From NCBI GenBank assembly GCA_038922795.1, contig JBCKWI010000003.1:5118-69117 (forward strand): 64,000 nucleotides of DNA, in the 5' to 3' direction. Position 1 is the first letter of the stretch. Every line of letters starts with the position of its first letter. The position numbers and the translations under genes were made by a program. Positions 275 to 61,950 of the stretch are shown one piece after another. The notes below the pieces were generated by a model. That model did no database searches. It was not told the DNA's origin and saw only the letters and a list, made by a program, of their open reading frames with translations. Source of the stretch: Gammaproteobacteria bacterium. Lineage in GTDB: Bacteria; Pseudomonadota; Gammaproteobacteria; Eutrophobiales; Eutrophobiaceae.

Positions 275-309
275 CACCCTCTCCCTCCGGGAGAGGGTTG
301 GGGTGAGGG
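275..309. repeat. REP-like nested palindrome (family A: CCCTCTCCC-TCCGGGAG-AGGG plus GGGGTGAGGG) in the icd-aceK intergenic region
   Basis: The inverted repeat ccctctccc/gggagaggg is seen directly. The same unit recurs at about 10407, 47041 and 61793. Confidence 0.8.
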
Positions 310-5268: not shown

Positions 5269-5269
5269 C

Positions 5270-10307: not shown

Positions 10308-10404
10308 GCAGAACATTTAGTGTCCCCTTCGGGGATGGTGGAAACCCCTCGCCTTCAGGCGAAGCAAGCTAGTGCGACATGTTCGCGTAGCGAACCTGAG
10401 CGTA

Positions 10405-10560
10405 AAACCCTCTCCCCTCGGGAGAGGGCACGATTACAGGATGTAATCGGTAGAGTCGAGCCGGGAGCGGAGACCGAGGGTGAGGGAAAAGCGATCAGGA
10501 TCATGCTGAGGTACAGCTTCCCTCATCCCCTGCCCTTCTCCCGGAGGGAGAAGGGGGTGT
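10405..10560. repeat. Composite REP cluster (family A units interleaved with a family B unit gattacaggatgtaatcggtagagtcgagccgggagcggagaccgag)
   Basis: Direct reading. ccctctcccctcgggagaggg, gggtgaggg and ccctcatcccc...ctcccggagggagaaggggg are present. The predicted ORF 10320-10640 lies wholly in repeats and is spurious. Confidence 0.8.
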
Positions 10561-10677
10561 TAGCCAGGTTTGAAGCCACCGGCTTGCAGCCGGTGGTAGT
10601 TCACTGGTTACGCAAAAAACCCCTGTCACATTTGATATGACAGAGGTGTGAGGAGAAGGTGAAATTTCCGGTCAGGT

Positions 10678-12335: not shown

Positions 12336-12653
12336 ATGAAAAACACAGCGCTTGAACTTGTCGATATCAAAAACAAGGAAATTGAATTGCAATCACTCGT
12401 GAATGATTGTGGCAAACCTGAACTGGTTCATTGCGTCAGGCTGTTGTCCATGTATGTTGCGCTTTATAAAAAGGCATTTGGTGACCTGCCTCCGGCAAGT
12501 TTTGAAAAAATACTGGCTTCTGATAATGTTGATGCGGACACCGCTAGAATCTTTGAGAATGGCATGCTGGAAGCAATAACCATTCTGGAGATGGTATTGC
12601 AATCACAGGCGCCTGCGCAAAGCTATCAATATGCGGGAGTAACCATCAACTAA
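12336..12653 (+). CDS. hypothetical small protein (105 aa)
   Basis: ORF with a plausible RBS (aggaaatacc ATG). No recognisable domain. Confidence 0.4.
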   Translation: MKNTALELVDIKNKEIELQSLVNDCGKPELVHCVRLLSMYVALYKKAFGDLPPASFEKILASDNVDADTARIFENGMLEAITILEMVLQSQAPAQSYQYAGVTIN

Positions 12654-12669
12654 CGGATTGACAATCCGT

Positions 12670-14181
12670 TCAAACGTTGTTTGACAGATCATTCAGGTTT
12701 TCTTCGGTCCCTTCCAGTCTGGATTTGGCGCCGTCATTGCGCATCTGATCAATATGGTTCAGATAATCCTGGTTGATATCACCCGTGACGTATTTTCCGT
12801 TGAAACAGGACAAATCAAATTCCCTGATGTCCGGATTACCGGCACTGACGGCTTCTATTAATTCATCAAGGTCCTGATAGATTAACCAGTCAGCGCCAAT
12901 CAGTTTCGCAACTTCTTCTTCAGTCCTGTTATGTGCAATCAGTTCGTTGACCGATGGCATGTCTATACCATAGACATTCGGATAACATACCGGGGGGGCC
13001 GCGGAGGCAAAATAAACTTTACTGGCTCCTGCATCTCTTGCCATCTGAATGATCTCGCTTGAAGTATTTCCACGCACAATGGAGTCATCAACGAGAAGGA
13101 CATTCTTGTCCTTGAATTCGAGGCCGATGGCATTCAGTTTCTGCCGTACCGATTTTTTCCGTACTGCCTGGCCGGGCATGATGAAGGTGCGCGGGATATA
13201 ACGGTTCCTGATGAAACCTTCCCGGTATTTCAATCCGAGGTTATAGGCCAGTGGCAATGCTGAAGTGCGTCCAGTATCGGGAATAGGGATAACAACATCG
13301 ATATCATGGTCCGGTCGCAATCTCATTATCTTCTTTGCCAGCGTTTCACCCATGCGCAACCTGGCCTTGTACACCGAAATATTGTCAATAATGGAATCCG
13401 GTCTGGCCAGATAGACATACTCAAAGATGCAGGGTGAATATCTTGGATGCTCGGTGCATTGCCGGGTGAATAACTTGCCATCAGTGGTGATGAATACAGC
13501 CTCGCCTGGCGCAATATCCCTGATCAAACTGAAATCCAGTGCGTCAATGGCGACGCTTTCAGAAGCGATAATATATTCCTTGCCCTTATCCGTATCACGT
13601 TCACCGAAGGCAACGGGCCGTATGCCGTTGGGATCGCGGAAACCGAGTACACCAAAGCCTGTGATCATGGCCACAGCGGCATAACCGCCACGGCAGCGCT
13701 GGTGCAGTTTGCTGACGGCATCAAACACATCATCGACCTCAAGGCGGACCTTGCCGAGACGTTCCAGTTCCCTGGCCAGGACATTCAGCAAAACCTCTGA
13801 ATCGGAATCGGTGTTCAGATGGCGCAGGTCTTCTATGAACAGATCTTGTTTCAATTCCTCACCATTGGTGAGATTGCCATTGTGTGCAAGCGTAATGCCG
13901 TAAGGAGAATTCACATAGAATGGTTGCGCCTCAGCCGAAGATGAGCAACCGGCGGTGGGATAACGCACATGGCCGATACCCATGTTGCCCTTGAGGTTCA
14001 GCATGTGGCGGGTGTGGAAGACATCCCGGACCATACCGTTATCCTTGCGCAGATAGAGCCTGCCCTGATCATAAGTCACCATGCCGGCCGCATCCTGGCC
14101 ACGGTGTTGCAGAACAGTCAAACCATCGTAGATGGCCTGATTGACGTAACTTTTAGCGACTATTCCGATAATCCCGCACAT
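12670..14181 (-). CDS. purF: amidophosphoribosyltransferase
   Basis: It has the N-terminal MCGIIGI nucleophile motif and the PRTase motif ([14 protein letters not shown]). Length is 503 aa. Confidence 0.95.
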
Positions 14182-14191
14182 CGCATTTTAC

Positions 14192-14734
14192 CTATGCATC
14201 AGTCTCTGGTCCAGGTTGATAGTCTTCCAGTACAGGCTCTATCTTTTCATAACTGTGATATTTTGCCATCGATTCCGGCAGATACTGCTGTGCCCAGACG
14301 GAAACCCGCTCAAACGGTTTCAGGAGTAATGATTTTCCCCATCCTTCTTCCGTGGGGACCGCCGTAAACCCCGCCAGGAATACCACGACCAGGACAATCA
14401 TCGCACCCAGACCCGTACCGAATAAAAGACCGAGGATACGATCAGTTGCGGTTAGCCCGGTCCTGCCCAGTAATTTTACAACCAGAAAACCGATACCCGT
14501 CAGGATCACCAGGCTGATAATAAATATTCCTGCAAAGGCAATGATAAGCCTGAGTATAGGTGTTTCTATCGAGGCTTCCAGCATGGGAGAGAACCATGGG
14601 GTAAATTTGGCCGCAATACCCAGTGCCAGTGCCCAGGCCAGCAGGGAAAAAACGATGTTCAGAAATCCATAGATCACACCGGCCAGGGCCGGTATTGCAA
14701 TGACAACCAGTATGATTATATCGGCTGTTTGCAT
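14192..14734 (-). CDS. cvpA: colicin V production protein CvpA (membrane)
   Basis: Multi-TM small protein immediately upstream of purF, the conserved cvpA-purF arrangement. Confidence 0.8.
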   Translation of the reverse strand: MQTADIIILVVIAIPALAGVIYGFLNIVFSLLAWALALGIAAKFTPWFSPMLEASIETPILRLIIAFAGIFIISLVILTGIGFLVVKLLGRTGLTATDRILGLLFGTGLGAMIVLVVVFLAGFTAVPTEEGWGKSLLLKPFERVSVWAQQYLPESMAKYHSYEKIEPVLEDYQPGPETDA

Positions 14735-14763
14735 GTCTTAATCATCAGTGAGCAAAGATTGAT

Positions 14764-15396
14764 TCAGGGATACTGAACAATGATGCCTTCAATCTGCATG
14801 TTGTTCTTCAGCTTTTCCTTGATTGCCTGTGCATCAGAACGTCTCAGTTCGGGGCCAACACGCACACGATATGAGGTAGTCTTATTCTGCTTGAGTGGTT
14901 CCACAAAAGATCGGAAACCTGCCTGTTTAAGCTTCTGATTGAGTTCCTGGGCATTTTTTTCACTGGAAAAACTGCCCAGTTGCACTACCCATGCGGGCAT
15001 ACCCACGTTGGTTGCAGGCTCATCACTTTTGCTGACTGCCGCGGCGGATTTTTGTCCGGTGGTTTGTGCAGGTTGTGGCGCCGTCGTTTCTTTTTTTGCA
15101 GCTGGCGGGACAGCCTCTTCTGTTTTCTGAATGACTGGTTCAGGTTCTTCTGCTTCTTCAACGGCAGGTCCTTCCTGCACCGGTATGATGCGCGAACTGA
15201 AATGACTGTCTGCCGGGATTATGCGTTCATCTGCCGAAGGTGGTAAGGGCATGTTCTCCGGTTTGGGCGGGATATTGGTTTCAGTGATCACAATTTCCTG
15301 ATCTTCAGTATCATCCAGCAGCATGGGGATGAAGATCACCGCAAGTACAACAATGACTGCTGCGCCAACCAGACGTTCTTTCAGACCTTGTTCCAT
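14764..15396 (-). CDS. dedD: SPOR-domain cell-division protein (DedD-like)
   Basis: N-terminal TM anchor, Pro/Ala/Glu-rich linker and C-terminal SPOR domain (WVVQLGSFSSEKNAQEL...YRVRVGP). Conserved position between folC and cvpA. Confidence 0.8.
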   Translation of the reverse strand: MEQGLKERLVGAAVIVVLAVIFIPMLLDDTEDQEIVITETNIPPKPENMPLPPSADERIIPADSHFSSRIIPVQEGPAVEEAEEPEPVIQKTEEAVPPAAKKETTAPQPAQTTGQKSAAAVSKSDEPATNVGMPAWVVQLGSFSSEKNAQELNQKLKQAGFRSFVEPLKQNKTTSYRVRVGPELRRSDAQAIKEKLKNNMQIEGIIVQYP

Positions 15397-15402
15397 TCGT
15401 GA

Positions 15403-16716
15403 TTAATGTTGTAACTTGAGATGTATGATGGCCGCCCCTACTGTGAGGAACGAACCGGTAATTACTATGCGATCCTGCGGTGCTACAATTTCGCGGACAC
15501 TGTTCAGGGCATCAGCGACTGAATTGTAACAGCTTATATTCTGGTTTAAACCCATTCCTGCCAGTACTTCACTCAGCATATGACAATCAGCACCTCGCGG
15601 ATTTTCCAGGGTGACAATATGCCAGAAATCCGCAACCTCGGACATCTCCCGGAAAATGGCATGATGATCCTTGTCTTTCAGCATGCCGATCAATACATGC
15701 GACTTGCCCTGCAGCGGTAACGCCTTCAGGTTCCGCACCAGAAGTGCAGCGGACTGGCAGTTATGCGCCACATCCAGTATCAACTGCGCCTTGTCCGGGA
15801 CAATCTGGAAGCGCCCGGCCAGGTTGAACTCCTGCAACCCTTTCCGGATGGCTTGAATGTCCACGGGAAAGCGGTCCGATAATACTGTTAATGCCATCAA
15901 CACACCAGCAGCATTCGCCATCTGCGTCGGGTTATACAACGAGGGCCGCGGCAAGTCAGTATAACTTACGGAACCCCACTGCCATTGCCAGGTATCGCTG
16001 ATGACCTTATGCCGGTAATCCCGGCCTGGTATATACAGTATTGTTCCCAGTTGACCGGCATGATCAAATATTGCAGCCGGGGGATTCGGGTCAGAACAAA
16101 CTGCAGGCGCATGACTGCGCATGATACCCGCCTTTTCCCTGCCGATGGATTCGCGGTCCGGTCCCAGCCAGTTTTGATGGTCAAGATCGATTGCGGTGAT
16201 CAATGCCACATCCGCATCTACACAATTAACAGCATCCAGGCGTCCGCCCAACCCGACTTCCAGTACGGCGATACCAATCCCTGCATGCTTGAAGATATCC
16301 AGTGCAGCCAGTGTGCCAAATTCGAAATACGTCAGTGAGATATCACCACGGGCACGGTCGATCCGGTCAAAAGACGCGCACAGCATCTCATCTGTCACCT
16401 CTACACCATTCAGACAGATGCGTTCGTTATAACGGATAAGGTGCGGTGAAGTATAACTCCCCGTGTTATAACCCGCATTGGTCAGTATGCCTTTCAACAT
16501 ATTGACGCTTGATCCCTTGCCGTTGGTACCGGCGACACTGATAACAGTATAATCCGGTTGCAGCAATCCCATCCTTTCCGCAACGGCCATGCATCGATCC
16601 AGTCCGAGGTCAATCGATGTGAAATGCAGGCCCTCCTGCCAAGTGAGCCACTCCTGCAAGGTATTAAAACGCATGGTTCCAACGGCGGGGATAATATTTG
16701 GTTTACTGGCTTGCAT
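15403..16716 (-). CDS. folC: bifunctional folylpolyglutamate synthase / dihydrofolate synthase
   Basis: Mur-ligase-family motifs (VAGTNGKGS P-loop; DVAHNCQSA). 437 aa. Confidence 0.9.
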   Translation of the reverse strand: MQASKPNIIPAVGTMRFNTLQEWLTWQEGLHFTSIDLGLDRCMAVAERMGLLQPDYTVISVAGTNGKGSSVNMLKGILTNAGYNTGSYTSPHLIRYNERICLNGVEVTDEMLCASFDRIDRARGDISLTYFEFGTLAALDIFKHAGIGIAVLEVGLGGRLDAVNCVDADVALITAIDLDHQNWLGPDRESIGREKAGIMRSHAPAVCSDPNPPAAIFDHAGQLGTILYIPGRDYRHKVISDTWQWQWGSVSYTDLPRPSLYNPTQMANAAGVLMALTVLSDRFPVDIQAIRKGLQEFNLAGRFQIVPDKAQLILDVAHNCQSAALLVRNLKALPLQGKSHVLIGMLKDKDHHAIFREMSEVADFWHIVTLENPRGADCHMLSEVLAGMGLNQNISCYNSVADALNSVREIVAPQDRIVITGSFLTVGAAIIHLKLQH

Positions 16717-16725
16717 GTTTGCAGT

Positions 16726-17598
16726 TTATTGTGCGGTAACAGGTTCGGGACGGTGTGTCAGTTTGGCCAGCAAGGAAGCGACTCGATCGCGCATTTCGCG
16801 CCGGTCTACAATCATATCAATAACACCATGTTCCAGCAGGAATTCACTGCGCTGAAACCCTTCAGGCAAGGTTTCCCTGACTGTCTGTTCAATCACACGC
16901 GGTCCGGCAAAACCTATCAGGGCGCCTGGTTCAGCAAGATTGATATCACCCAGAGTAGCCAGGCTCGCCGAGACACCGCCCATGGTCGGGTCAGTCATGA
17001 CGGATATATAAGGTATATTCTTTTCACTCAATAACCCCAGTGCCGCACTGGTCTTGGCCATCTGCATCAGTGACAGGATAGCTTCCTGCATCCTGGCGCC
17101 ACCACTCGCGGAAAAACACACCAGCGGAATATGATGCTCAATGGCAGCTTCAACTGCGCGGACAAAGCGTTCACCAACCACGGAACCCATGGATCCGCCC
17201 ATGAATTCAAATTCAAAGGCACAGACCACCAGCGGGATGTCCTTCAACTGCCCCATCATGACGATCAATGCATCCTGTTCGCCTGTTTGTTTCTGGGCCT
17301 GACTCAACCGGTCTTTGTATTTTTTGGTGTCACGGAATTTCAACTTGTCTACCGGTGTGATCCCGGCGCCTATCTCAACGCGTGGTTCCGGATCAAGAAA
17401 ATATTCCAGCCTGGCACGCGCCCGTATACGCATGTGATACGAACATTTTGGACAGACTTCCAGATTACGGTTGAGTTCTGCCCGGTACAATACGGCATTA
17501 CATTTAACACATTTGCTCCACACACCCTCAGGCACCGTCCTCTTCGAGGTAGTGGTCGTCTTAATGCGGGATGGAATAAGCTTTCTGAACCAACTCAT
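16726..17598 (-). CDS. accD: acetyl-CoA carboxylase carboxyltransferase beta subunit
   Basis: N-terminal Zn-ribbon ([26 protein letters not shown]) and carboxyltransferase domain ([11 protein letters not shown]). Confidence 0.95.
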
Positions 17599-17628
17599 AG
17601 TATCAATTCCGTCAAGTTTTCCGGATGA

Positions 17629-18435
17629 TCAGGGTGCATCGATCGCCGTACGTAATTCAGTAAGATAAGCAGTGACATCCTGAATCAGTTTTTCCTTGTG
17701 TTCACCCAACTGCGCGATACGCTCCACCAGGGCGCTGCCCACAATGACTGCGTCACTGAAACCGGCCACTGCCTTTGCAGTTGCTGCATCCTTGATCCCG
17801 AAACCTACACCAACCGGGAGGCCCGTTTTACTCCGTATATGTGCGATCTTTTCGGCAACATCATCAACATTCAAACGGTTGCTGCCGGTAACTCCCTTGA
17901 GCGAGACATAATACAGGAAACCACTCGCTTTGGAGCAGATCAGTGCCAGCCGTTCATCACTGGTAGTCGGTGATAACAGAAAAACCTGATTGAGATCATA
18001 ACGATTCAGTTCTGATTGCAATTCATCTGACTCTTCGGGTGGCAGATCAACCAACAGCACCCCGTCTACACCGGCCTCACTTGCCCGTTTGGCAAACACC
18101 TGATAACCCATCACCTCTATCGGATTGAGATAACCCATCAGGATGACCGGTGTTTTTTGATTTTCCTTGCGAAAGCCTGCAACGATACGCAGTACATCAT
18201 TCAGACTGGTAGCATGTTTCAAGGCACGTTCGCTGGATCGTTGAATAACCGGACCATCCGCCATCGGATCAGAAAACGGGACACCCAGCTCTATGATGTC
18301 CGCGCCACCCCTGACCAGGGCTTGCATCAATGGCAGGGTCACTTCCAGATCCGGATCACCGGCGGTGATAAAAGGAACCAGTGCCTTGCCACCGCACTTG
18401 TGCAGATTGTCAAAACAATCTTTTATTCGACCCAT
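17629..18435 (-). CDS. trpA: tryptophan synthase alpha subunit
   Basis: 268 aa. TrpA motifs (ELGVPFSDPMADGP; GFGI). Confidence 0.95.
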   Translation of the reverse strand: MGRIKDCFDNLHKCGGKALVPFITAGDPDLEVTLPLMQALVRGGADIIELGVPFSDPMADGPVIQRSSERALKHATSLNDVLRIVAGFRKENQKTPVILMGYLNPIEVMGYQVFAKRASEAGVDGVLLVDLPPEESDELQSELNRYDLNQVFLLSPTTSDERLALICSKASGFLYYVSLKGVTGSNRLNVDDVAEKIAHIRSKTGLPVGVGFGIKDAATAKAVAGFSDAVIVGSALVERIAQLGEHKEKLIQDVTAYLTELRTAIDAP

Positions 18436-18569
18436 AATGTTTTGCCTGTCGTTCCAACGATAAAGAAGATATTAAAAGGAATACCAGAGATCAGATAACC
18501 AGATGATTACTTGAGATTAATACTAAGGAACCTCTGATTAAGTGTCTTTGCCGTCATGCTGGTGAAAAC

Positions 18570-18898
18570 GACCTACACGAAGTAGGAAATGCCGCAAGAC
18601 GCCTATAGGGATATAGGCGGTAGAGCAACGCACGACTCCAGGGATGGATGAGGTAGAATCGCGTCGGGAACAGCGATCGAGGAGCCAAAGCCGAGGACAC
18701 GACGACATGGATGTAGGAGGTACGATTACAGGGAAGTAATCGGTAGAGTCGAGCCGGGAGCGGAGACCGAGAGTAACGTCGGGAACAGTTACCGAGGAAG
18801 TCCATAGCGGCCAGCATCCAGTAAATAATTGTTTTGACTGGGTTCTGGCCTGCGCCAGAATGACAGCTTGTAGCCACTGGTGACTTGATCAGAACATC
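18570..18898. repeat. Mosaic cluster of short palindromic units (family B) ending in the family C terminal module agaatgacag...cttgatcagaac, lying inside the trpB-trpA intercistronic space
   Basis: Direct reading. The same units (gtagagtcgagccgggagcggagaccgag; catggatgtaggaggtacgattacagggaagtaatcgg) are seen at 10430, 28130, 55610 and 56830. Confidence 0.8.
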
Positions 18899-18909
18899 CC
18901 TAAGTTTTC

Positions 18910-19107
18910 TCATGATGGCGGTATTTGCCTGAGTTTCAGTTCAAGCAATTCAATCGCCATATCGGGTATTTCTTCATGATTTTTTGATTCATTCGATGTC
19001 AGCCAGTGGTCTACCATTTCGCGTTTGACACTGACCAGTTCGGCGACCTGTCTGCGATCCAGTTTATAGTCTGCTATCAGTTCTATTAATCTTTCCCGGT
19101 TATTCAT
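18910..19107 (-). CDS. small putative HTH protein (65 aa) between trpB and trpA
   Basis: The ORF begins 7 nt after the trpB stop on the same strand. A helix-turn-helix-like segment (RQVAELVSVKREMVDHWL) is present. It could be a repeat-associated artefact. Confidence 0.35.
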   Translation of the reverse strand: MNNRERLIELIADYKLDRRQVAELVSVKREMVDHWLTSNESKNHEEIPDMAIELLELKLRQIPPS

Positions 19108-19116
19108 GTTAATACC

Positions 19117-21944: not shown

Positions 21945-24900
21945 TTAAATCTGACCCAGTAACTCCTGGGCTTGCTGACGTTGTTCATCATTTCCAGCAG
22001 CTATGATTTCATTCAGTATGGTCTTTGCATTATCTGAATCTCCAAGTTCAACATAGGCCTTGGCCAGATCCAGCTGACTGGCAATTTCATCTTCTTCGGT
22101 TTGCTGGGCAGTACCGGCGGAACGTGGCACCATAATAGTATGATCAGCGTCATCATCCTGTTCGTCTATCACGAATTCAAATTCATTCCCCGATGGTGCT
22201 TCGTCCTCTGTCTCTATATCTGAATCCAGCGCAGCACGCTTTGGTATCTGCATGGTACCTTCCATATCGATTTCAGGCAGTACATCAGGCGCGTCATCAG
22301 TATCAAGATTAAAATCAATCCCGAGGTTCGAGCTGTCCTGGCCTGATGTAATATCAAAACCTGCAAAGGTCATATCTTGCTCATTCACATCATTCTCACT
22401 GGCATCATCTGGTGACAATTCAAAATCAAGCAGATTATCATCTGCATCTCTTACTACGCCGGCTTTGGTGTTATCGAGCAACTCGTCCGCATCCATACTG
22501 GCACTCGTTGCGGCGGTAACATCAAGAAGATCCGCATCACTATCCGGCTCAAAGTTCCTGGTCTTTGTAACATCAAGCAAATCATCGCCGGACTGCTCTT
22601 TTGTACCAGTTTCAATCTCCAGAGATTCATCTTCATCATAAAGACTGATGCCTGAAGTGACATCAAGCAGATCAGCAGTCCCGGTTTTTTCATCATCAGT
22701 GACATTAAATGACGTATCCAGGACATCGGGGGCAGATTCATGTTTCTTTTCGTCTTGCTCCAGATCAAACGAGAAATCCAGTGCGTTGTCATCAGTCACC
22801 GCGCCCTCATCTTCTGCCTGCGATATATCCAGTGAAATGTCCAGCGCGTCCGCGGAGGGTTCTTCCGGCTTTTTGTCTTCTTCCAGGTCAAACGAGAAAT
22901 CCAGTGCGTTGTCATCTGCCACTGCGCCCACATCTTCTGCCTGCGATATATCCAGTGAGATGTCCAGTGCGTCCACAGAGGATTTTTCCGGCTTCTCGTC
23001 TTCCTCCAGGTCAAATGAAAAGTCGAGCGAATTATCATCCGCGGATTTGGATTCTGCCAGGGCGACTTCGTCCCCGGCACTTTCATCATCAGTCGCGGCA
23101 GTCACATCAAGTGCTGCTTCATCGTCCATATCAATCGCAGCAGTGACATCCAGTATGTCTCCGTCTCCACTGTCATCAACAGCGGCCATATCAAGAACAT
23201 CGGCACCACTGGAGGTTGTATCCAGATCGAAATCCAGACCAGCAGTGGTTGCACTTTCATCACCGGCAATATTGACTATGCCTCCACCGCTGGCGGCGGC
23301 ACCGGTATCCTGTTCATCACCTTCAGATTCCGCAAATAATGCGCGGTTTGGAGAAATTTCCCGCCACATGGCAACAGCCATCTTCCAGTAGTCACCCTTC
23401 CCGCGAACCTTATCGTGCAGAACCCGCGCAGCCTTTTCGTATCCTTTTTTGTTGTTGGCTGCATAATATACCTCGAGTAACTTGGTATGGTTTTCAAGAT
23501 TATCAGGATCTTTTGCGATTATTTTCTTGACCAGTTCTTCGGCCTGATCATATTGCTCATAGGCCAGGAAATAATTGATCTCAGTAAATGGATCTTCTTC
23601 CTCTTCAGGCGCAGGCGCCTGTTTTACTACCTGCGGTGATATAACCTTCGTGGCGTCCTGTTTTTCAAATTCCAGCTCACCTGTTTCATCTTCTGAACCG
23701 GGCAGAATTGTTATGGCCTCGGAATCCACCAGCGCCGTGCTGAGATCGGTTGCATCTTCCAAATGAGAATCCCGTGGCTGATCCGCAAAATCGTCGAAAT
23801 TGGGGAAGGCGTTTTGCGGGATCTCTATTGCAGACTCACTCTGACGGCGTTTGACAAAAGCAACCCCCAGGCCAACCAGCAGCAATCCTCCCAGAACTGC
23901 GCCCACATAGGTGAGATTGCTCCTGATAATGTCAATTATTCCCGTCAGGGCAGAAGGGATAAATGAAGTAGCGGCGGTATCTACTGTTGTATCAACTGCC
24001 TCTCCTGCAACTGTTTCATCCTCTTCCTGTACCGGTGACTCCTCCGCAGTTGTTACTTCAGCTTCCGCTACTTGCACAGGTTCTTCCGGTTCTGGCGCTT
24101 CAGCCACAGCTGCCTGTTCCTCTGCAATAGCAGCTTTCGCTGCTTCTTCAGCCGCTATCTGTTGTTGCAGGGCTGCCAGTTCACTTTCCTTGAGCACAAT
24201 CAGACGCTTCAGGTCATCAACGATCGCCTCTGTTTCGGAAAGTTTGTCCTTAAGTTCGGCGTTTTCCAGTGTTAATGCTTCAAGCGATTCACTAACCAGC
24301 GCCAGTTCGTTTGCCAGTTGTTCACTACTGGGCTCAGTGGCTCCTGCTATACCCCCACCTTCTTCAGCCGGTGCTACCAGGCGTAGTTCCGGTTCTCCTT
24401 CCGGAGGAACAACAACCGGGGCAATTTCAGGAGTGACTACGATTTCCGGAGTTGCCACCTCCTCGCTGATCACAGTTTCTGGTCTTGGTGTGACAGCTGT
24501 AGCCAGGGCACCACGTGCCTCTTCCCATAATCTGTTTTGCAGTAGGGCCTGTGCAAATGCCTCATCCCTGGTGAGTGAACGTAGCTCGGATGGGTCCGGT
24601 AAATTCAGAATTTGTCCACGTTTTAGTCCGTTGATATTGCCATTAATAAAGGCCTCGGGGTTTGCCCGCAGCAGGGCAATCATTATCTGCTGCACACTCA
24701 CAGAGCTGTCTGGACGCATAGCGCTTGCGATTGACCAAAGGGTATCTCCTGTCACTGTGGGACCATAATCCCCACCATCGTAAGCGATAGGTCTTGATAT
24801 TGGCGGCGCGGCAGATGGAACACTTCTGGCTGGTTTATATTCAGGAGCATAAACAACCTGATTGTCTTTTATGTCCCGGACAATTGTGCCTGTTGTGCTT

Positions 24901-25337
24901 TCTACCGGGGCAGACTGTGTCAGTCTTTTCTGTTTTTCGGGGCTGGCATAGATGGGTGGGTCCAGTAACACGGTATATTCCCGGTACAGGCGGCCTTTGG
25001 ACCAGCTCACTTCCAGCAGAAAATTCAGGAAGGGTTCACGAATGGGCTCATTACTGTAAATACGGATATAATCTGAGCCTGAATCCGTCTCTTTTAGAAC
25101 AAAATTCAGATCTCTGAGGATATTTAATCTGGGGATACCGGCACGGCTGAATGCAGCCTCATCAGCCAGTCTTACATTCAGGCTGTCAAGTTCTTCTATA
25201 GTTGCTGAAAGCAGTTCAATCCGGGCTTCAAAGGGTTCATTAAGTGCGGAATCAAGATCCAGCTTACCCAGTCCCAAAGCGTGTACAAGCGCAGGAGCAA
25301 ATGTAATCAGTAAAAATAACTGCAGTCTCAATCTCAT
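21945..25337 (-). CDS. fimV: FimV-like peptidoglycan-binding pilus/motility assembly protein
   Basis: Signal peptide, FimV N-terminal domain, LysM (TVTGDTLWSIAS...GQILNLP), a TM segment, a very acidic tandem-repeat region, TPR, and the FimV C-terminal motif (LDLAKAYVELGDSDNAKTILNEI). Confidence 0.9.
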   Translation of the reverse strand: MRLRLQLFLLITFAPALVHALGLGKLDLDSALNEPFEARIELLSATIEELDSLNVRLADEAAFSRAGIPRLNILRDLNFVLKETDSGSDYIRIYSNEPIREPFLNFLLEVSWSKGRLYREYTVLLDPPIYASPEKQKRLTQSAPVESTTGTIVRDIKDNQVVYAPEYKPARSVPSAAPPISRPIAYDGGDYGPTVTGDTLWSIASAMRPDSSVSVQQIMIALLRANPEAFINGNINGLKRGQILNLPDPSELRSLTRDEAFAQALLQNRLWEEARGALATAVTPRPETVISEEVATPEIVVTPEIAPVVVPPEGEPELRLVAPAEEGGGIAGATEPSSEQLANELALVSESLEALTLENAELKDKLSETEAIVDDLKRLIVLKESELAALQQQIAAEEAAKAAIAEEQAAVAEAPEPEEPVQVAEAEVTTAEESPVQEEDETVAGEAVDTTVDTAATSFIPSALTGIIDIIRSNLTYVGAVLGGLLLVGLGVAFVKRRQSESAIEIPQNAFPNFDDFADQPRDSHLEDATDLSTALVDSEAITILPGSEDETGELEFEKQDATKVISPQVVKQAPAPEEEEDPFTEINYFLAYEQYDQAEELVKKIIAKDPDNLENHTKLLEVYYAANNKKGYEKAARVLHDKVRGKGDYWKMAVAMWREISPNRALFAESEGDEQDTGAAASGGGIVNIAGDESATTAGLDFDLDTTSSGADVLDMAAVDDSGDGDILDVTAAIDMDDEAALDVTAATDDESAGDEVALAESKSADDNSLDFSFDLEEDEKPEKSSVDALDISLDISQAEDVGAVADDNALDFSFDLEEDKKPEEPSADALDISLDISQAEDEGAVTDDNALDFSFDLEQDEKKHESAPDVLDTSFNVTDDEKTGTADLLDVTSGISLYDEDESLEIETGTKEQSGDDLLDVTKTRNFEPDSDADLLDVTAATSASMDADELLDNTKAGVVRDADDNLLDFELSPDDASENDVNEQDMTFAGFDITSGQDSSNLGIDFNLDTDDAPDVLPEIDMEGTMQIPKRAALDSDIETEDEAPSGNEFEFVIDEQDDDADHTIMVPRSAGTAQQTEEDEIASQLDLAKAYVELGDSDNAKTILNEIIAAGNDEQRQQAQELLGQI
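22748..23125. repeat. 126-bp tandem repeat (about 3 copies) encoding 42-aa acidic repeats (DNALDFSFDLEEDEKPE...ADALDISLDISQAED) inside fimV
   Basis: Direct reading. The first two units are near-identical and the third is diverged. This explains the long antisense ORFs predicted here. Confidence 0.85.
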
Positions 25338-28129: not shown

Positions 28130-28690
28130 ATCTACCGCCGCTCGACAACTTGTTCCAGACGTTGTCCCGGTCTCTGTTCCAGACGCGACTCTCGACCGCT
28201 GTTCCCGACGCGGTTCTACCTCCCCCGTCCATGGGGTCGTACCGATTCCATCCATGGAATCGTACCACCTCGACAATTGCTCCAGGCATTGTTCTACCTC
28301 CCACGTCCATGTGGTCGTACTTCCCTGTAGGCGTCCCGCGCAGTCGCTATCAGCATCCCGCTTCATGCGACACTAATACATCCCTGTATGTCGTCCTGCA
28401 CCCGCGGAATACGACCGCCATGGATGGCGGAAGTGTCGAAAATGTAAGGAACAATTTTTCGACCCGTACCTCCTGTACATAAATGTCAGGAACAATTTTT
28501 CGACCATTACGTCCATGTAAATCGCCGCTCCTCGGCTTTGGCTTCCTGCGTCGCCCTACCTCCTGCATCCTTGCAGTCGTGTGCAGTCGCTGTCAGCATC
28601 CTGCTTTACGCGACACTAATACATCCCTGTATGTCGTCCTGCACCTGCGGCATACCGTACTTCCTGTACATAAAAAGGCTGCACAGCATA
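28130..28690. repeat. About 560-bp mosaic array of short palindromic units (family B), including a pair of 68-bp direct repeats (28338-28405 and 28583-28650)
   Basis: Direct reading. Units such as gtcgtaccgattccatccatggaatcgtacc, tccctgtaggcgtccc, tacctcctgcatccttgcagtcgtg and aggaacaatttttcgacc x2 are present. There are no uniform spacers. Confidence 0.85.
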
Positions 28691-28692
28691 CC

Positions 28693-45258: not shown

Positions 45259-46508
45259 CAGAGACCATTGCCACGCTCCCGCTGTTTGCGGGTTATGGTA
45301 TTGAACTCGAATATATTATTGTTGATCGCGATCATCACAATGTTCTGCCTGTTACCGATCAGTTACTCAAAGCCGCCACAGGTGACTATGTCAGTGATTA
45401 TGAGGAAGGATCCATTGCCTGGTCGAATGAACTGGTACTGCATGTCATTGAATTAAAGACCAACGGGCCGGTCAGCATGCTTACCGGTTTACCGGATCAT
45501 TTTTTATCCAATATCCACCGTATCAACAAAATCCTTGAAAACATGAACGGCAGGCTGATGCCAGCAGCTATGCATCCCTGGATGGATCCTTTTAAAGAAA
45601 CCCGATTGTGGCCGCATGAGTCTTCCGAGATCTATGAAAGCTACAATCGTATCTTCAATTGCCAGGGACATGGCTGGTCGAACCTGCAAAGCATGCATAT
45701 CAATCTGCCGTTTGCAGATGATCATGAGTTTGCGCTTTTACATGCTGCCATCCGTATATTGTTACCGATTATGCCGGCACTCGCCGCGAGTTCACCGATC
45801 ATGGATGGTCAATATACCGGCCTGCTGGATACGCGGCTGGAAGTCTACCGGCGCAATGCCGAAAAAATCCCCAGCATCACCGGCCTGGTGATTCCGGAAC
45901 CGGTGCATCATTATCTCGATTATCAAAACATGATCCTGCAGCCCATGTATGCTGCCATTGCCCCGCATGATCCGGAGGGCATTTTGCAATATGAATGGTT
46001 GAATTCCAGGGGAGCCATTGCCCGCTTCGACCGTAACGCCATTGAGATACGCGTGCTGGATACACAGGAGACGCCGCAGGCCGATATCGCCATTGCCGCC
46101 ATGATCATATCCATCCTCAAGAAGCTGGCGGCTGCGATATGGTCTGATGTTACAGAACAAAACCAGCTCGACACAGAAACTCTGGCAGAGCTCTTGATGT
46201 TGACCATCAAAGAAGGTGAACTGGCTACAATTAAAAATAAGTCCTATCTTGAATTATTCGGTTTTCCGGATCGCAAAGGCCTGGTACAGGAACTCTGGCA
46301 ACACTTGCTTGAATCAATATCAGCAGATGATACGGATTTAATCCCGGAACTCAGAAAAACAATAGAATACATCATTCATTGCGGGCCACTGGCACGCCGC
46401 ATCAAGCTGTCGATCGGCAAGGAGTGCAAACGTTCTCACATGCAAGAGTCTTATCGCCAGCTCTGCGATTGTTTAAATAACGGACAGCTCTTTGAAGGCA
46501 TCGACTAG
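45255..46508 (+). CDS. GCS2/YbdK-type carboxylate-amine ligase (glutamate-cysteine-ligase family 2)
   Basis: The N-terminal GYGIELEYIIVD pattern is characteristic of GCS2 (GxExEhxxVD). About 417 aa. Start overlaps the upstream stop (ATGA). Confidence 0.7.
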   Translation: MTETIATLPLFAGYGIELEYIIVDRDHHNVLPVTDQLLKAATGDYVSDYEEGSIAWSNELVLHVIELKTNGPVSMLTGLPDHFLSNIHRINKILENMNGRLMPAAMHPWMDPFKETRLWPHESSEIYESYNRIFNCQGHGWSNLQSMHINLPFADDHEFALLHAAIRILLPIMPALAASSPIMDGQYTGLLDTRLEVYRRNAEKIPSITGLVIPEPVHHYLDYQNMILQPMYAAIAPHDPEGILQYEWLNSRGAIARFDRNAIEIRVLDTQETPQADIAIAAMIISILKKLAAAIWSDVTEQNQLDTETLAELLMLTIKEGELATIKNKSYLELFGFPDRKGLVQELWQHLLESISADDTDLIPELRKTIEYIIHCGPLARRIKLSIGKECKRSHMQESYRQLCDCLNNGQLFEGID

Positions 46509-47367
46509 AAAAATAATAATAACCTGTGAACATGGCGGTCATCATGTGCCATTGGAATATCGCCACCTGTTTAACAAACAGCAGTCCGTCCTGGGTTCTC
46601 ACCGCGCCTGGGATGCAGGGGCACTGCTACTTGCCAGAGAGCTTGCCAAAAAATTAAATGCGCCGCTCATAGTTTCTGAAATAACCCGGTTACTGATCGA
46701 TCTCAACCGTTCCCTGCACCATCGTGTTCTCTTTTCAGAATTCACCAGAGATTGTGATAAAGAAACCAGAAATCAAATTCTTCAGGAGTATTATTTTCCA
46801 TACCGGAACCGTGTCGAGAATGAAATTACAAAAGCATCGAAAGGGGGGAAACCAGTAGTCCATTTTTCTATCCATTCGTTCACGCCCAGACTTGGTAGTG
46901 AAATACGTAAAGCCGATATCGGATTGCTGTATGACCCGACCAGGAAAGGCGAACGTGATCTCTGCATCCAGCTACAGGCTATTCTGCAGGGAATTAACCA
47001 TCTCCGTAAGGAACATAGTTCCCTCACCCGTGCTTCGCACGGCCTCTCCCGGAGGGAGAGGCTAATACACCCTCTCCCTCCGGGAGACGACTGCATGGAT
47101 GCAGGAGGTAGAATAACGCTTGGAGCAGTTATCGAGGGTTGGGGTGAGGGTGCCGTGGATGGTAATGCAAACCAGCCTATCGTCCGGCGTAATTATCCCT
47201 ATCGCGGTAATGCAGATGGTTTTACAACTTATTTAAGAAAAAAATATCCGGGATCAAAATACATTGGTATAGAGATCGAAATCAACCAGAAGCAGGTCAA
47301 TCATGCTGATCACTGGAAAAGTTTACGCGAGCATATAATCAATTCTGTTATCAGACTAACAATCTGA
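46492..47367 (+). CDS. N-formylglutamate-amidohydrolase-family (FGase-like) hydrolase carrying an in-frame REP insertion
   Basis: ITCEHGGHHVP, SIHSFTP and ...RRNYPYRGN...YIGIEIEINQ fit the FGase family. A 120-nt REP element (47041-47160) is translated in frame as GLSRRERLIHPLPPGDDCMDAGGRITLGAVIEGWGEGAVDG. Confidence 0.7.
   Translation: MKASTRKIIITCEHGGHHVPLEYRHLFNKQQSVLGSHRAWDAGALLLARELAKKLNAPLIVSEITRLLIDLNRSLHHRVLFSEFTRDCDKETRNQILQEYYFPYRNRVENEITKASKGGKPVVHFSIHSFTPRLGSEIRKADIGLLYDPTRKGERDLCIQLQAILQGINHLRKEHSSLTRASHGLSRRERLIHPLPPGDDCMDAGGRITLGAVIEGWGEGAVDGNANQPIVRRNYPYRGNADGFTTYLRKKYPGSKYIGIEIEINQKQVNHADHWKSLREHIINSVIRLTI
47041..47160. repeat. REP family-A element (ggcctctcccggagggagaggc / ccctctccctccgggag ... 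ggttggggtgaggg) located inside a coding sequence
   Basis: Direct reading. Same family as 275-309, 10405-10560 and 61793-61912. Its length of 120 nt preserves the reading frame. Confidence 0.8.
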
Positions 47368-52092: not shown

Positions 52093-52489
52093 GCACCCGG
52101 CATGATGCGTGACCCGCTACTGTGGTCTTCAAGTTTGTATATTTAATGTATACAACCACACAATAATCATTAATGTTTTTTAAAATTTTTAAACTGGTCT
52201 ATATTAACCAAAAAAGTGGTTGTAACTGCTTATAAACAACCAAGACCTGGTCTAGTTTTATTTCAAATCTAAAAAGCACGTCTTAATCAATTAACCGATG
52301 GCAATAATAATCCATCTTTTACACATGACTTGAGTCAAAAAATCACTCTGCATACTGAATTATTTAAAATTAGTTTGATCTAGATCAAATAATTCCCGAT
52401 CTCTGATTTGTCTACCTGTCACATGGCATAATAGTTGCGGCCAAATGCTTTGAATCTATGAGTTAAACATCTAAGGAAGCTCTGAATAA

Positions 52490-52660
52490 GGTGTCATTTC
52501 GGGCAAAGCGAGAAATCTGTAGTTAAAAATGTCAAACAAAATCAAATAACCGCGAGATTTCTCGACCACTGTTCCAGACGTGGTTCTACCGCCTGCTTCC
52601 ATGCAGGCGTCCCTACGGTCGAAATGACAATAACAACTTAATCAGAGGTTCTCTGAATAA
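52490..52660. repeat. Composite palindromic repeat cluster (family C gtcatttcg-gcaaagcgagaaatctg / cgcgagatttctcgacc plus a family B unit plus the terminal module gaaatgacaa...cttaatcagag)
   Basis: Direct reading. Related copies at 54917-55020 and 60583-60648. Confidence 0.8.
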
Positions 52661-54878: not shown

Positions 54879-54916
54879 AAGCTGCAATTTCTGGATAAGG
54901 AAAATTCTGATTAAGC

Positions 54917-55020
54917 TGTCATTCCGAACGTATGTGAGGAATCTTTGAGTTGCTTGTTTTTTTTGTAATAAGAACTACAGATTTCTCGCTACGCTCGAAA
55001 TGACAACTTATTCAGAGACT
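54917..55020. repeat. family C long-arm inverted repeat (ctgtcattccgaacg ... cgctcgaaatgacaa) with the terminal module cttattcagagac
   Basis: Direct reading. Confidence 0.75.
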
Positions 55021-55038
55021 CCTTAATATCAGCCGGTT

Positions 55039-55609: not shown

Positions 55610-55750
55610 AACCCACTGCGCCTTCCCCCTGGCAGGGGGAACGACTCCATGGATGGAGTCGGTAGAGCAACGCAGGACGCCTACAGGGAGCGTGATGAAC
55701 TTGAACTCTACCTGAGGTTCCGGGCCTGTGCAGGAGATAAAGTCTCACGC
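55610..55750. repeat. family B palindromic repeat cluster flanking the IS remnant (left side)
   Basis: Units ccccctggcagggggaacgactccatggatggagtcggtagagcaacgcaggacgcctacagggagcg are read directly. Confidence 0.75.
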
Positions 55751-55810: not shown

Positions 55811-56825
55811 ATGAGCAAGGGGGGTCACGAGATGATGACAATAATTGGTATTGATGTAGGCAAGGCGAAACTGGACTGCCTGTGGTTAAAAGACCCGGCC
55901 ACTGGCAAAGTGAAGACCAAGGTCTTTGCCAACACGCCGGACGGCCGCCTGGCGTTAATGGGGTGGACTGAACAACAGACACCAGTAGCACTGAATGCGG
56001 TCCATTTTATGATGGGGGCGACCGGGGTCTATCATGAGGCCTTGGCCTATACGCTGTACCGGGCGGGGGCGAAGGTGTCCGTGGTGGATCCGGCACAGGG
56101 GCGGGATGATGCCAAGGGCCTGGGGTCACGCACCAGGACCGACAAGAAGGACAGCTGGGTACTGGCCCGCTTGGGTGCGACACAAGGGACCCGGTTATGG
56201 CAGCCTGAACCTGACGAGGTGCGTAAGCTTGCGCCTCCGCGCCCGCATTGAGGCGGTAGAACAGGCTATTCGGCGCGAGATGAATCGTTTGGAGAAAGCG
56301 GCGATCGCACCGGTGTCCGAAGAGATATTAACCTCGATTCATACGGTTCTGGAACAACTTGAAAAAGAGAAAAAACGGCTGGAAGGGTTAATCAACCGGC
56401 ACATTGATCAACACCCCGGCCTGAAACGTGATCAGCAATGACTGGAGGGCATCCCCGGGGCCGGGCCGGTGATTGCCCGCGACCTGATGGCCGTGATCCG
56501 CAGCCGGTCATTGACTTCGGCGTCGCAGTGTGCGGCCACCTTGGGACGGGTCCCGATCCAGCATGAATCCGGTTCTAGTGTGCGCGGCAGACCGCCTATG
56601 TCCAAAGCCGGGAGTGCGACGATACGGGCCAAATTATAGATGGCGGCAGTCGTGTCCATTCAGCACAACCCGGATATTAAACGGCCCTATCAACGCTTGC
56701 TGAAAAAAGGAAAAGTTAAAATGAGTGCACTGGGTGCAGCCATGCGCAAGCGGGTGCATATTTGTTTTGGTGTATTAAAACACCAGACACCCTGTCAAGC
56801 ACAAACCCTGTCAATGGATTTGTGA
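55811..56825 (+). pseudogene. IS110-family transposase, disrupted by at least 3 frameshifts
   Basis: The N-terminal DEDD domain is MMTIIGIDVGKAKLD...GATGVYHEALAYTLYRAGAKVSVVDPAQ. The continuation lies in other frames: 56034-56441 (...LEKEKKRLEGLINRHIDQHPGLK), 56440-56640 (LEGIPGAGPVIARDLMAVI...) and 56640-56825 (...YQRLLKKGKVKMSALGAAMRKRVHICFGVLKHQTP). Confidence 0.8.
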
Positions 56826-56829
56826 TAGA

Positions 56830-57200
56830 TGGAGGAAGATGGTATCTCCTGCATCCTTGTAGTCGTGTCCTCGGCTTTGGCCTCCTCGATCGCTGTTCGA
56901 AAACCTGTTCCTGACGTTTTCTCGGTCTCTGTTCCAGACTCGACTCTACCGATTCCTTCCATGGAATCGTACCGCCTACATTCCCTGTAGGCGTCCCGAC
57001 GCGATTCTACCTCCTCCATCCCTGGAGTCGTGCGTTGCTCTCGGTCTCCGCTCCCGGCTCGACTCTACCGATTACATCCTTGTAATCGTACCGCCTATGT
57101 CCCTATAGGCGTCTCGCGACTTTTCCCACTTCCTGTGGGTCGCCTACGCCAGAATGACAGCATGTAGAAACTTGTAACTTAATCAGAACATCTTTAATTA
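56830..57200. repeat. family B palindromic repeat cluster with the terminal module agaatgacagcatgtagaaacttgtaacttaatcagaac (right side of the IS remnant)
   Basis: Direct reading. It contains ctcggtctccgctcccggctcgactctaccgatta, the reverse complement of the unit at 10450 and 18750. Confidence 0.8.
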
Positions 57201-57632: not shown

Positions 57633-58160
57633 ATGAACAAGAAACACAGTCAGTTAAAAAGCATCGTAATCTCGATCCTTGCTGCAGTCCTTTATGTGAA
57701 TTATGCCATTGCCCATCCAGTCGACGAACATCGTCAACCGGACAAGGTGCAGATCATCCTGCTGGCCGATAACACACCACCTCCGGTCAATGATGATGGC
57801 ATGGTAACAATGGGTGGGTTGAGCGGGCCGAAGGAGAGTAAAGGCATCGCTTCGATAGATCCGATGGGTATAATTGATCTGGGTGCAGAATTTCCGGCCA
57901 TGAGTGGCCGCCAGTTACGCGCAAGAATATTCACCATTGAACCCGGCGGTATCGTCGGCATTCACACGCACGAACAACGACCGGGTTATGCCTTCATTAT
58001 CAGCGGCAGCATTGTGGAACATCGTAATGATAACCCGGAGCCGCTTGTTCGCACCGCCGGTGATATTGCTATAGAGAAAGACGGTGTCACCCACTGGTGG
58101 GAAAATACCTTCGAAGAACCGGTGAAAGCGCTGGTCGTGGATATCTTCACACCGGAATAG
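57633..58160 (+). CDS. secreted cupin-domain protein
   Basis: Signal peptide plus a cupin motif (GIHTHEQRPGYAFIISG...G). 175 aa. Confidence 0.7.
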   Translation: MNKKHSQLKSIVISILAAVLYVNYAIAHPVDEHRQPDKVQIILLADNTPPPVNDDGMVTMGGLSGPKESKGIASIDPMGIIDLGAEFPAMSGRQLRARIFTIEPGGIVGIHTHEQRPGYAFIISGSIVEHRNDNPEPLVRTAGDIAIEKDGVTHWWENTFEEPVKALVVDIFTPE

Positions 58161-58507: not shown

Positions 58508-58697
58508 AGATACCCTTAGAGATGAATATCCGGAAGAACTGATCAAATCAGGTGTCCGTGGAAAATACACAGAGAGCTACCGCAAAAGTACAAACATCGT
58601 TCTGATTGATCCGGATCTGTACAAACTATTCCCCGATTCGGAAGCCGTTAACCGTGCACTTCGCGAGTATGCTTCAACAAGACGAACGGCAACTTAA
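58494..58697 (+). CDS. brnA: BrnA-like (CopG/RHH) antitoxin
   Basis: The start overlaps the brnT 3' end. The C-terminal ...PDSEAVNRALREYAS resembles BrnA. Confidence 0.6.
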   Translation: MNSDKDTLRDEYPEELIKSGVRGKYTESYRKSTNIVLIDPDLYKLFPDSEAVNRALREYASTRRTAT

Positions 58698-58794
58698 TAT
58701 CGCCATCGAGAAAGCCGGTATCACCCACTGTTGGGAAAATACCTTCGATGAACCGGTGAAGGCGTTAGTAGTGGATATCTTCAAACCGGAGTAA
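58693..58794 (+). pseudogene. diverged duplicate of the last about 32 codons of the cupin gene
   Basis: IAIEKAGITHCWENTFDEPVKALVVDIFKPE* versus the cupin C-terminus IAIEKDGVTHWWENTFEEPVKALVVDIFTPE*. About 85% nt identity with 58063-58160. Confidence 0.6.
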
Positions 58795-60546: not shown

Positions 60547-60582
60547 ACAAATATTAAAGAGATACAAGATAAATTAAATGTG

Positions 60583-60648
60583 TCATTTCGAGCGAAGCGA
60601 GAAATCTGAAGTTAAAACCATGAGATTTCTCGCTTCGCTCGAAATGAC
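60583..60648. repeat. perfect long-arm inverted repeat (tgtcatttcgagcgaagcgagaaatct ... agatttctcgcttcgctcgaaatgaca), family C; probable bidirectional terminator / MITE-like element
   Basis: Direct reading. Arms are about 27 nt and the loop about 12 nt. Confidence 0.85.
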
Positions 60649-60672
60649 AAATCACTACCCTGAAGAGTTTAC

Positions 60673-61792: not shown

Positions 61793-61950
61793 CTCCCCCT
61801 TCCCCCTCCGGGAGAAGGGATGGGGATGAGGGAAGGTTTTGATCCATTCACTGCCATTTCACAAAAATCATTCCCTCACCCGTACCCTCTCCCGGAGGGA
61901 GAGGGTTGATATCCTGTGTCCACATCCGAACCTCTCCGGTGGGAGTGGGT
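61793..61950. repeat. REP family-A cluster (two nested palindromes plus a partial unit) between metA and the P-loop gene
   Basis: ccccctccgggagaagggatggggatgaggg ... ccctcacccgtaccctctcccggagggagaggg is read directly. Confidence 0.8.

Follow-up and report, generated by a model that had tools for sequence, protein, structure and literature searches.

Repetitive extragenic palindromic (REP) sequences of the GTAG-tagged kind have been defined by a stem of 5 to 13 bp, a loop of 2 to 20 nt and an unpaired GTAG at one end (PMC3733652), and the REP-associated tyrosine transposases (RAYTs) require this GTAG beside the hairpin and cleave at CT or CA next to the REP (PMC8266576). Stems of 5 bp occur in the group 3 REPs of Marinomonas (PMC8266576), and REP dimers inserted in palindromes as well as REPs within genes have already been reported (PMC3733652). 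Arguments on how REPs spread and how clusters resembling bacterial interspersed mosaic elements (BIMEs) form have so far drawn mainly on population statistics and on cleavage in vitro. Here we analyze a 64,000-nt stretch of chromosomal DNA with about 48% G+C from a gammaproteobacterium (assembly GCA_038922795.1, contig JBCKWI010000003.1, positions 5,118 to 69,117 of the forward strand), referred to as the window, in which many intergenic spacers are filled by three families of palindromic repeats, A, B, and C. An earlier note on this DNA had described these families as saturating the window and their clusters as composite miniature inverted-repeat transposable elements (MITEs) that end in a common terminal module. 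We find that the repeats are REP/BIME-like selfish DNA nested in MITEs that are probably of the IS5 type. Selfish bacterial DNA of this kind is known; what is particular here is its unusually clear self-nesting form across many gammaproteobacteria. Family B is a 48-nt module for which boundaries, size, structure, target preference, and presence/absence polymorphism are all shown below, and the locus gives base-precise insertion or excision events of this defined unit between close relatives.

Read on the strand that carries GGA, the family B module has the form 5'-CGA-[8-bp hairpin, GGA loop]-GGTAGA-[5-bp hairpin, loop GTCKGGAACA]-CGA-3', the two hairpins being called type 1 and type 2. The type-2 unit, GGTAGA-[5 bp]-GTCKGGAACA-[5 bp]-CGA(G), has the structure by which GTAG-tagged REPs are defined. 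A pattern search for the whole unit returned nine complete modules in the window, each of 47 to 48 nt, and among 114 modules from 93 loci the length was exactly 48 nt in 103. The flanks of these modules lie outside the search pattern and are strongly biased: with tandem copies included, A precedes the module in 99 of the 114 cases and G follows it in 110, in the contexts GTA^G (49/114), GCA^G (14/114), and GGA^G (14/114), among others. Five of the nine copies in the window have the GTA^G flank, and on the complementary strand the junction reads C^T. Both helices covary. Over 78 distinct modules, both partners had changed in 193 pair-cells, where shuffles gave 61.7±7 (0 of 500), and the covariation score was 0.498, against 0.194 in shuffles and at most 0.11 with the partners slid. 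Likewise, 138 of 161 type-1 units, with 45 different stems, showed at least 4 of 5 Watson-Crick pairs, compared with 33/161 when partners were shuffled.

Gain or loss of single, complete modules is seen in the spacer between EamA and leuB, where the window and its relative L124 (88-92% identical) differ by two clean 48-nt blocks:

28131..28692, plus strand: family B array without family C ends, upstream of leuB, in which modules M2 (28193-28240) and M1 (28271-28318) are both absent from the orthologous array of L124.

Removal of M1 restores a 28-mer that matches L124 at 28/28 positions and re-forms an intact type-1 hairpin; removal of M2 gives a 26/28 match. Both blocks lie inside GTAG, at GT^AG or GTA^G (a one-base ambiguity), with only 1 nt of microhomology, and neither shows a target duplication or terminal inverted repeats. 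A discrete hairpin unit, precise insertions and deletions, the lack of duplication and of terminal inverted repeats, and a short target are hallmarks of "peel and paste" transposition by HUH Y1 enzymes. Since the internal GGTAGA of each module offers a preferred site in its turn, the recurrence of GGTA^CGAC and TCGA^G as junctions and the uniform orientation and nesting of the arrays are all to be expected. Within the same array an 80-nt block is repeated (28333-28412 and 28576-28655, 243 nt apart, 89% identity), so that arrays also grow by segmental duplication. A long-stem hairpin, GTCGAAAA...TTTTTCGAC, whose loop is of the TGTTCC type, further occurs twice in the array, in inverted orientation.

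Nesting is displayed by the array near the 57-kb position, which comprises the following features:

56843..57141, plus strand: family B array with TCC loops on the plus strand, made of type-1 and type-2 units and a GCGAC...GTCGC hairpin (57113-57141).
56885..57011, plus strand: split type-2 unit, CTCGATCGCTGTTC / CCGACGCGATTCTACC, its loop interrupted by about 97 nt of other B units (56899-56995).
56922..56969, minus strand: complete 48-nt B module with flanks GGTA / ... / GAAAAC, hence within GTAG.
57041..57088, minus strand: complete 48-nt B module with flanks GGTA / ... / GAGCAA, within GTAG; it includes gtcgagccgggagcggagaccgag, a palindrome listed in the earlier note.
57142..57193, plus strand: right terminus of family C (the terminal module of the earlier note), ...CCAGAATGACAGC...CTTAATCAGAACATCT, followed by TTAA at 57194-57197.

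Type-1 hairpin units of this array lie at 56843-56866, 56947-56970, 56970-56994, 57008-57031, 57066-57089, and 57089-57112, and the tract 56843-57190 folds far better than its shuffles (z = -5.6). The split type-2 unit is a nested insertion: the ATCGC and GCGAT stems of its two halves (56885-56898 and 56996-57011) match 99 nt apart, and the halves pair in the minimum-energy fold. Host hairpins whose loops are interrupted after TGYTC keep matching stems on the two sides of inserts of 48-99 nt. A count of split hosts with complementary stems gave 8 against 7 in controls, so that there is no enrichment and only the single cases are informative. A left family C terminus was searched for the element that ends at 57193, and none was found.

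The module also resides in hosts of other kinds. In the window these include family A elements and a protein-coding gene:

276..309, plus strand: intact family A element, hairpin CCCTCTCCC-TCC-GGGAGAGGG followed by TTGGGGTGAGGG; the "empty" reference for B insertions into A.
10408..10486, plus strand: family A element interrupted between its hairpin and its GGGTGAGGG tail by a 47-nt B module (10431-10477).
47019..47150, plus strand: two family A hairpins and one 48-nt B module (47088-47135), in frame in the FGase-family gene 46492-47367.
61798..61905, unstranded: two family A elements in opposite orientation (units 61798-61830 and 61872-61905).

The FGase-family (N-formylglutamate amidohydrolase-like) gene, on the plus strand, reads through its 132-nt A+A+B composite in frame and without a stop codon, and alignment of the protein to PDB 2odf leaves about 63 extra residues at the composite. 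B occupies the same junction of A-like elements in three genomes (that of the window, L004, and L097) and sits inside C-like palindromes in L046, L083, and L085. The family A copies at 277 and 10408 flank a type I restriction-modification island (hsdM, hsdS, an AAA ATPase, and hsdR; region 2330-9986 and 10155-10680) with a G+C content down to 0.36. Where the window has this island, L001, L122, and L124 have a C39-peptidase ABC exporter after the DUF1631 gene, and about 2.5 kb is apparently replaced in the window by the hairpin cluster 10280-10680.

Family C is a MITE, and the terminal module of the earlier note is the end of the family C element. Its copies are as follows:

18527..18899, unstranded: 373-nt family C MITE filled with B units, between trpA and a small conserved open reading frame (ORF) downstream of trpB.
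52475..52651, unstranded: family C MITE, its left inverted repeat GGAAGCTCTGAATAAG preceded by CTAA, with one 48-nt B module (52562-52609) in the right arm.
54899..55022, unstranded: family C MITE without any B, with both termini, the imperfect flanks ATAA and TTAA, and a position between convergent genes.
60578..60652, unstranded: family C long palindrome without outer termini, with 30-nt arms (97% complementary) and a 15-nt spacer.

When aligned, the ends show a 16- to 17-nt terminal inverted repeat, GGRA-N3-4-YCTGAWNARG, followed by TGTCATT. This consensus is carried, imperfectly, by 7 of 8 aligned termini (six in the window; the end at 57.2 kb begins AGAT), and the motif occurs in both orientations, one per end, at the elements 52475-52651 and 54899-55022 and as right ends at about 18899 and 57193. 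The element 18527-18899 has the inverted repeats GGAACCTCTGATTAAG and GGATGTTCTGATCAAG and is flanked by CTAA direct repeats (18523-18526 and 18900-18903), a 4-bp duplication. The same trpB-trpA site is empty in L117, L119, L122, and L124-L129, relatives at ~76-92% nucleotide identity. In L124, position 9911 aligns to window 18901 and 9918 to window 18517, which leaves the 373 nt at 18527-18899 as additional sequence of the window; at the collinear empty site, TTAA (reverse-complement orientation) occurs once. L122 harbors a sister element that has the same ends and CTGA on both flanks; it is located between the genes for the SPOR-domain protein and cvpA, at a position that is empty in the window. 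Duplications of the 4-bp form YTAR are typical of the IS5 group, and the family C end GGAAGCTCTGAATAAG is identical to the E. coli IS5 end GGAAGGTGCGAAYAAG at 13 of 16 positions, the IS5 ends having been read from E. coli K-12 (IS5A) as GGAAGGTGCGAATAAG and GGAAGGTGCGAACAAG. Because of the empty site, the CTAA duplication, the inverted repeats, and these IS5-like ends, we regard family C as a MITE that is probably of the IS5 type. Its interior consists of an inverted pair of hairpin units, GTC-[ATTTC]-GAGCGAAGCGA-[GAAAT]-C, whose stems vary yet stay complementary (ATTCC/GGAAT in the window, ATCCT/AGGAT in L085). The contigs of the two closest assemblies break exactly at the trpB-trpA element, as B arrays break short-read assemblies; a contig of the metagenome-assembled genome (MAG) GCA_038922735.1 shows 98.5% identity over window 10691-18484. 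The small ORF between trpB and trpA (65-66 residues, about 18910-19110, minus strand) is kept in all relatives examined, and the 373-nt MITE lies 6 nt past its stop codon, inside the trp operon.

Counted over the window, families A, B, and C and the terminal module are present at or beside the positions given in the earlier note, far above chance. The family A pattern CCCTCTCCC-NNN-GGGAGAGGG with up to 3 mismatches has 8 matches against 0.02 expected, at 277, 10408, 10534, 47042, 47070, 61798, and 61885, with a weak match at 3626. For family B, 15 matches to the type-1 hairpin TACCGN6TCCNTN5CGT (at most 1 mismatch) compare with 0.21 expected, and the type-2 pattern CTCG-N5-TGTTCCMGAC-N5-TCTACC was found 4 times exactly and 5 times at up to 2 mismatches against 0 expected. 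Family B clusters lie at 10431-10477, 18570-18800, 28131-28692, 47088-47135, 52562-52609, 55620-55689, and 56843-57141, and family C long arms at 52492, 54979 (minus strand), 60581, and 60623 (minus strand), with a diverged arm at 54917. The terminal module, AATGACA-N0-30-CTTRWTCAGA, has 6 matches against 0 expected, four at sites that had been noticed before (18859, 52623, 54999, and 57153) and two as their inverted mates (52481 and 54906). It is, as had been proposed, a real and defined transposon terminus rather than a chance motif, and it carries an imperfect 16- to 17-nt terminal inverted repeat. The idea that the three families are interrelated was likewise borne out by the nesting of one in another. 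To say that they saturate the window is too strong, as there are 12 repeat tracts with a total of about 2.2 kb (3.4% of the window), all intergenic except one. The seven tracts that bear B, intergenic bar one, show the high copy number, the dispersal, and the predominantly extragenic position that are customary for REPs. Target-site duplications, which the earlier note had suggested looking for, exist for family C (CTAA at the 373-nt trpB-trpA element) and are lacking for family B. A search for tRNA genes found none.

Taken together, we consider it rather probable that the tract is a nest of noncoding mobile DNA of two kinds, an IS5-type MITE (C), which duplicates a 4-bp TTAR/CTAA target, and a 48-nt REP-like module (B) that is moved in trans. 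In this scheme, B would integrate or excise precisely at A^G (C^T on the other strand), preferably at an A^G inside GTAG. As every module brings its own GTAG, later copies would land inside or beside earlier ones and thereby build head-to-tail and nested arrays, and B would also land in family A hairpins and family C arms. The module may move as single-stranded DNA by means of an HUH Y1 enzyme of the RAYT or IS200-like type supplied in trans, a step that we infer because of the hallmarks of B and the GTAG/CT specificity of RAYTs. Finally, an IS110-family element would have inserted at the left edge of the 57-kb array at a later time and then decayed.

Several observations weigh against this reading. 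The B indels fit insertion and precise excision equally well, the two being indistinguishable, and the flank statistics include tandem copies that possibly stem from nonindependent events. As GGTAGA was part of the search pattern, it is invariant across genomes by design. RAYT biochemistry is not directly mappable onto the C^T junction, because the GTAG 5' of the type-2 hairpin is on the other strand. In addition, a head-to-tail organization is rare in the described REP families (PMC3733652). As to the enzyme, the cognate RAYT or IS200 gene that the earlier note had suggested looking for was not found: a search of all ORFs by regular expression and phmmer found no Y1/RAYT gene in the window and a single one in 875 kb of 116 related loci, where it is not linked to B, and clustering of ORFs across loci revealed no gene family linked to B arrays. 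This sole Y1 gene (L077 5496-6272, minus strand, 234 residues, RAYT/TIRYT-like) lies not between B units but between inverted repeats of its own, roughly 30 nt long, that contain GGGGTCGTAGTGA. With 60-70% identity across gammaproteobacterial orders, its family is more conserved than is usual for transposases and seemed a good candidate partner for a conserved repeat. It was rejected as the mobilizer of B on the test that no B unit occurs in 354 kb around 80 metagenome homologues. For family C, the similarity to the IS5 inverted repeat amounts to 13/16, and neither a full-length IS5-like parent nor an IS5-type transposase occurs in the sequences of the window and related loci.

A scan of genomes with the type-2 pattern returned at least 115 stretches. 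The matches listed include Methylobacter and other Methylococcales, Acidiferrobacterales, Lysobacterales, Chromatiales, and Thiotrichales, in addition to sponge and tubeworm symbionts, one Nitrospira MAG, and one Planctomycetota MAG; among them, the nearest named genomes with the same repeats are mostly Methylobacter and unclassified Gammaproteobacteria. The architecture of the module is identical everywhere among the loci listed. Among viral contigs, 2 of 2.9 million in IMG/VR (L130 and L131) carry the type-2 pattern. With respect to genes, 20 copies are GGA-sense and 13 TCC-sense, 17 lie between convergent and 7 between divergent genes, and no clear transcription bias is apparent. More tentatively, and as a possibility that we hold to be short of probable, B may be a single-strand transposon of 48 nt that is spread throughout the Gammaproteobacteria and ranks with the smallest discrete units of mobile DNA known. 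It would preferentially target the GTAG of its own sequence, build arrays by nesting into itself, and be kept near-identical across orders by one conserved trans-acting HUH enzyme or by horizontal spread.

Conceivably, no transposition is involved at all and the arrays arose by REP/BIME-like accretion, through replication slippage, unequal crossing-over, and gene conversion between similar hairpins. Segmental duplications do occur within arrays (the 80-nt copies at 28333 and 28576, 243 nt apart), arrays are located at synteny breaks, and the split host units with complementary stems (8 versus 7 in controls) are not enriched. Against it stand the 48-nt indels, with only 1 nt of microhomology and an intact hairpin restored, the presence of equally sized modules in such unrelated hosts as family A, family C, and a coding gene, the specific A^G/GTAG flank preference, and the conservation of the unit across bacterial orders. 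We judge accretion as the sole origin to be unlikely.

The proposal of the earlier note that whole clusters are single composite MITEs, with B as internal cargo of C that moves only together with C by an IS5-type DDE transposase, fares worse and appears decidedly unlikely. The trpB-trpA element, with its C ends and B interior, is indeed present or absent as one 373-nt block, and a 114-nt multi-unit stretch of the 57-kb array (56886-56998) recurs at 91% identity within the array upstream of leuB in L124, which means that blocks above one module get copied. Yet B is a 48-nt module in its own right, with separate boundaries and a separate target preference: the array at 28131-28692 has no C ends, B lies inside family A (10431 and 47088) and in a gene, and clean 48-nt steps altered B twice within one orthologous array. 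Moreover, B occurs in at least 115 stretches whereas family C termini are rare at B loci (1 of 116 loci), and the orientation of B relative to the C terminus differs between the elements ending at 18899 (18527 element) and 57193.

Selection of the arrays as RNA, be it as CsrA/RsmA decoys, anti-Shine-Dalgarno CCUCC RNAs, or mRNA stabilizers or terminators, is very improbable, for although type-1 loops show GGA in short hairpins on one strand (e.g., ACAAGGATGT, which we take to resemble a CsrA site), a G·U occupies the loop-closing pair in 16/78 modules on the TCC strand, and most copies lie between co-directional or convergent genes, the orientation is mixed (TCC-sense in the trp operon, GGA-sense upstream of leuB), the copies are dispersed, the indels are precise, and one copy sits in frame in a gene. 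Rfam scans of two clusters (gathering threshold; E <= 10) gave nothing meaningful, and a CsrB/Rsm-type small RNA was rejected on this ground and because the copies are dispersed and oriented both with and against transcription.

The left edge of the 57-kb array adjoins the remnant of an insertion sequence (IS), which is enclosed by two oppositely oriented B clusters:

55620..55689, plus strand: short B cluster of opposite orientation (GGA loops on the plus strand), with a truncated hairpin GCCTACAGGGA where the IS110 remnant begins.
55811..56825, plus strand: decayed IS110-family transposase gene, adjoining the left edge of the B array.

The gene contains PF01548 (DEDD_Tnp_IS110, 5e-15) and PF02371 (Transposase_20, 2.5e-6) in different reading frames and is therefore a pseudogene; the ends of the IS and its target could not be defined. 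Because IS110-family elements are known to target REP sequences (PMC1525189), the simplest reading would be a later IS110 insertion accompanied by rearrangement. Elsewhere in the window, a 97-nt stretch from the 3' end of a cupin gene (58063-58159) is duplicated 634 nt downstream (58697-58793, 87% identity), and a FimV-like gene (ORF 21945-25337, minus strand) contains 123-nt tandem repeats at 22710-22955, its product having 1130 residues as compared with 1096-1173 in relatives.

In a practical sense, B arrays mark synteny breakpoints, may sit in frame in genes, and may create spurious ORFs. In a broader sense, the target rule (A^G, preferably in GTAG) and the self-targeting logic would explain how arrays grow, and if B is a self-targeting single-strand transposon, its indels constitute direct, base-precise evidence for the growth of REP/BIME clusters. 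A unit common to many gammaproteobacterial orders fits uneasily with lineage-specific REP-RAYT pairs, which makes the search for its enzyme a well-posed problem. No description of the B module was found in the searchable literature using the repeat strings and the REPs of the taxa concerned, which is weak evidence of novelty.

Among known systems, the arms of family C invite comparison with the CGTC-tagged REPs (Neisseria dRS3 and the Neisseria intergenic mosaic elements; PMC3733652). They share the start (C/T)GTC-AT, the head-to-head pairing, and an adjoining IS110-family element, but have a 5-bp stem, an 11- to 12-nt loop, and a CTG/CTT tail in place of the 8- to 9-bp stem, 4- to 5-nt loop, and CCA tail (PMC3733652), and the assignment was rejected on these dimensions of stem, loop, and tail. 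With the IS5-group IS and MITEs, family C has in common its ends (13/16), a 4-bp YTAR-type duplication (CTAA), and its small, noncoding, and site-polymorphic nature; it is unlike them in its interior, a long palindrome of hairpin units, and no transposase or full-length parent was seen. That interior, with inverted units and a spacer, has the geometry of REPINs (inverted doublets of the same REP that form one long hairpin; PMC3116915). B shares with REPINs the property of a nonautonomous, two-hairpin replicating unit, but was rejected as a REPIN since its two different hairpins stand in direct order and cannot fold into one long hairpin. Nor is B a BIME of the E. coli type, in which regularly spaced REPs alternate in orientation, as its units, head-to-tail or nested, share one orientation per array.

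The closest likeness of B is to the GTAG-tagged REPs and BIMEs with their RAYTs (PMC2817692, PMC3733652, PMC8266576). Both consist of short hairpins that are dispersed in extragenic DNA and have an unpaired GTAG on the 5' side of the stem-loop, a spacer of 1-2 bases, and a tail of 3 nt. Both also have subfamilies with compensatory changes in the stem, form mosaic clusters, have occasional genic copies, and are targeted by IS110-family elements; furthermore, the CT cut site of RAYTs corresponds to the C^T junction dinucleotide of B, and the 5-bp stems of the Marinomonas group 3 REPs recur in B. In contrast to REPs, B is neither a single REP nor an inverted doublet but combines two different hairpins, directly ordered, at a fixed length of 48 nt; it has long conserved loops and variable stems and forms head-to-tail and nested arrays. 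It is also shorter than the ~89-nt REP-doublet repeat of Pseudomonas fluorescens (cited in PMC2817692). REPs are usually lineage specific, whereas the B sequence is common to several orders and has no RAYT linked to it. In its working, B behaves like a miniature element of the IS200/IS605 type, a likeness that does not extend to a claim of family membership. As in IS200/IS605 and their miniature derivatives (palindrome-associated transposable elements [PATEs]), there are no terminal inverted repeats and no target-site duplication, the hairpins are subterminal, the target is short and specific, and excision is precise. B differs from them in that no TnpA or TnpB was found, in its far smaller size, in hairpins that begin 3 nt from the left end and abut a 3-nt CGA tail at the right, and in a target, GTA^G, that lies within its own sequence.

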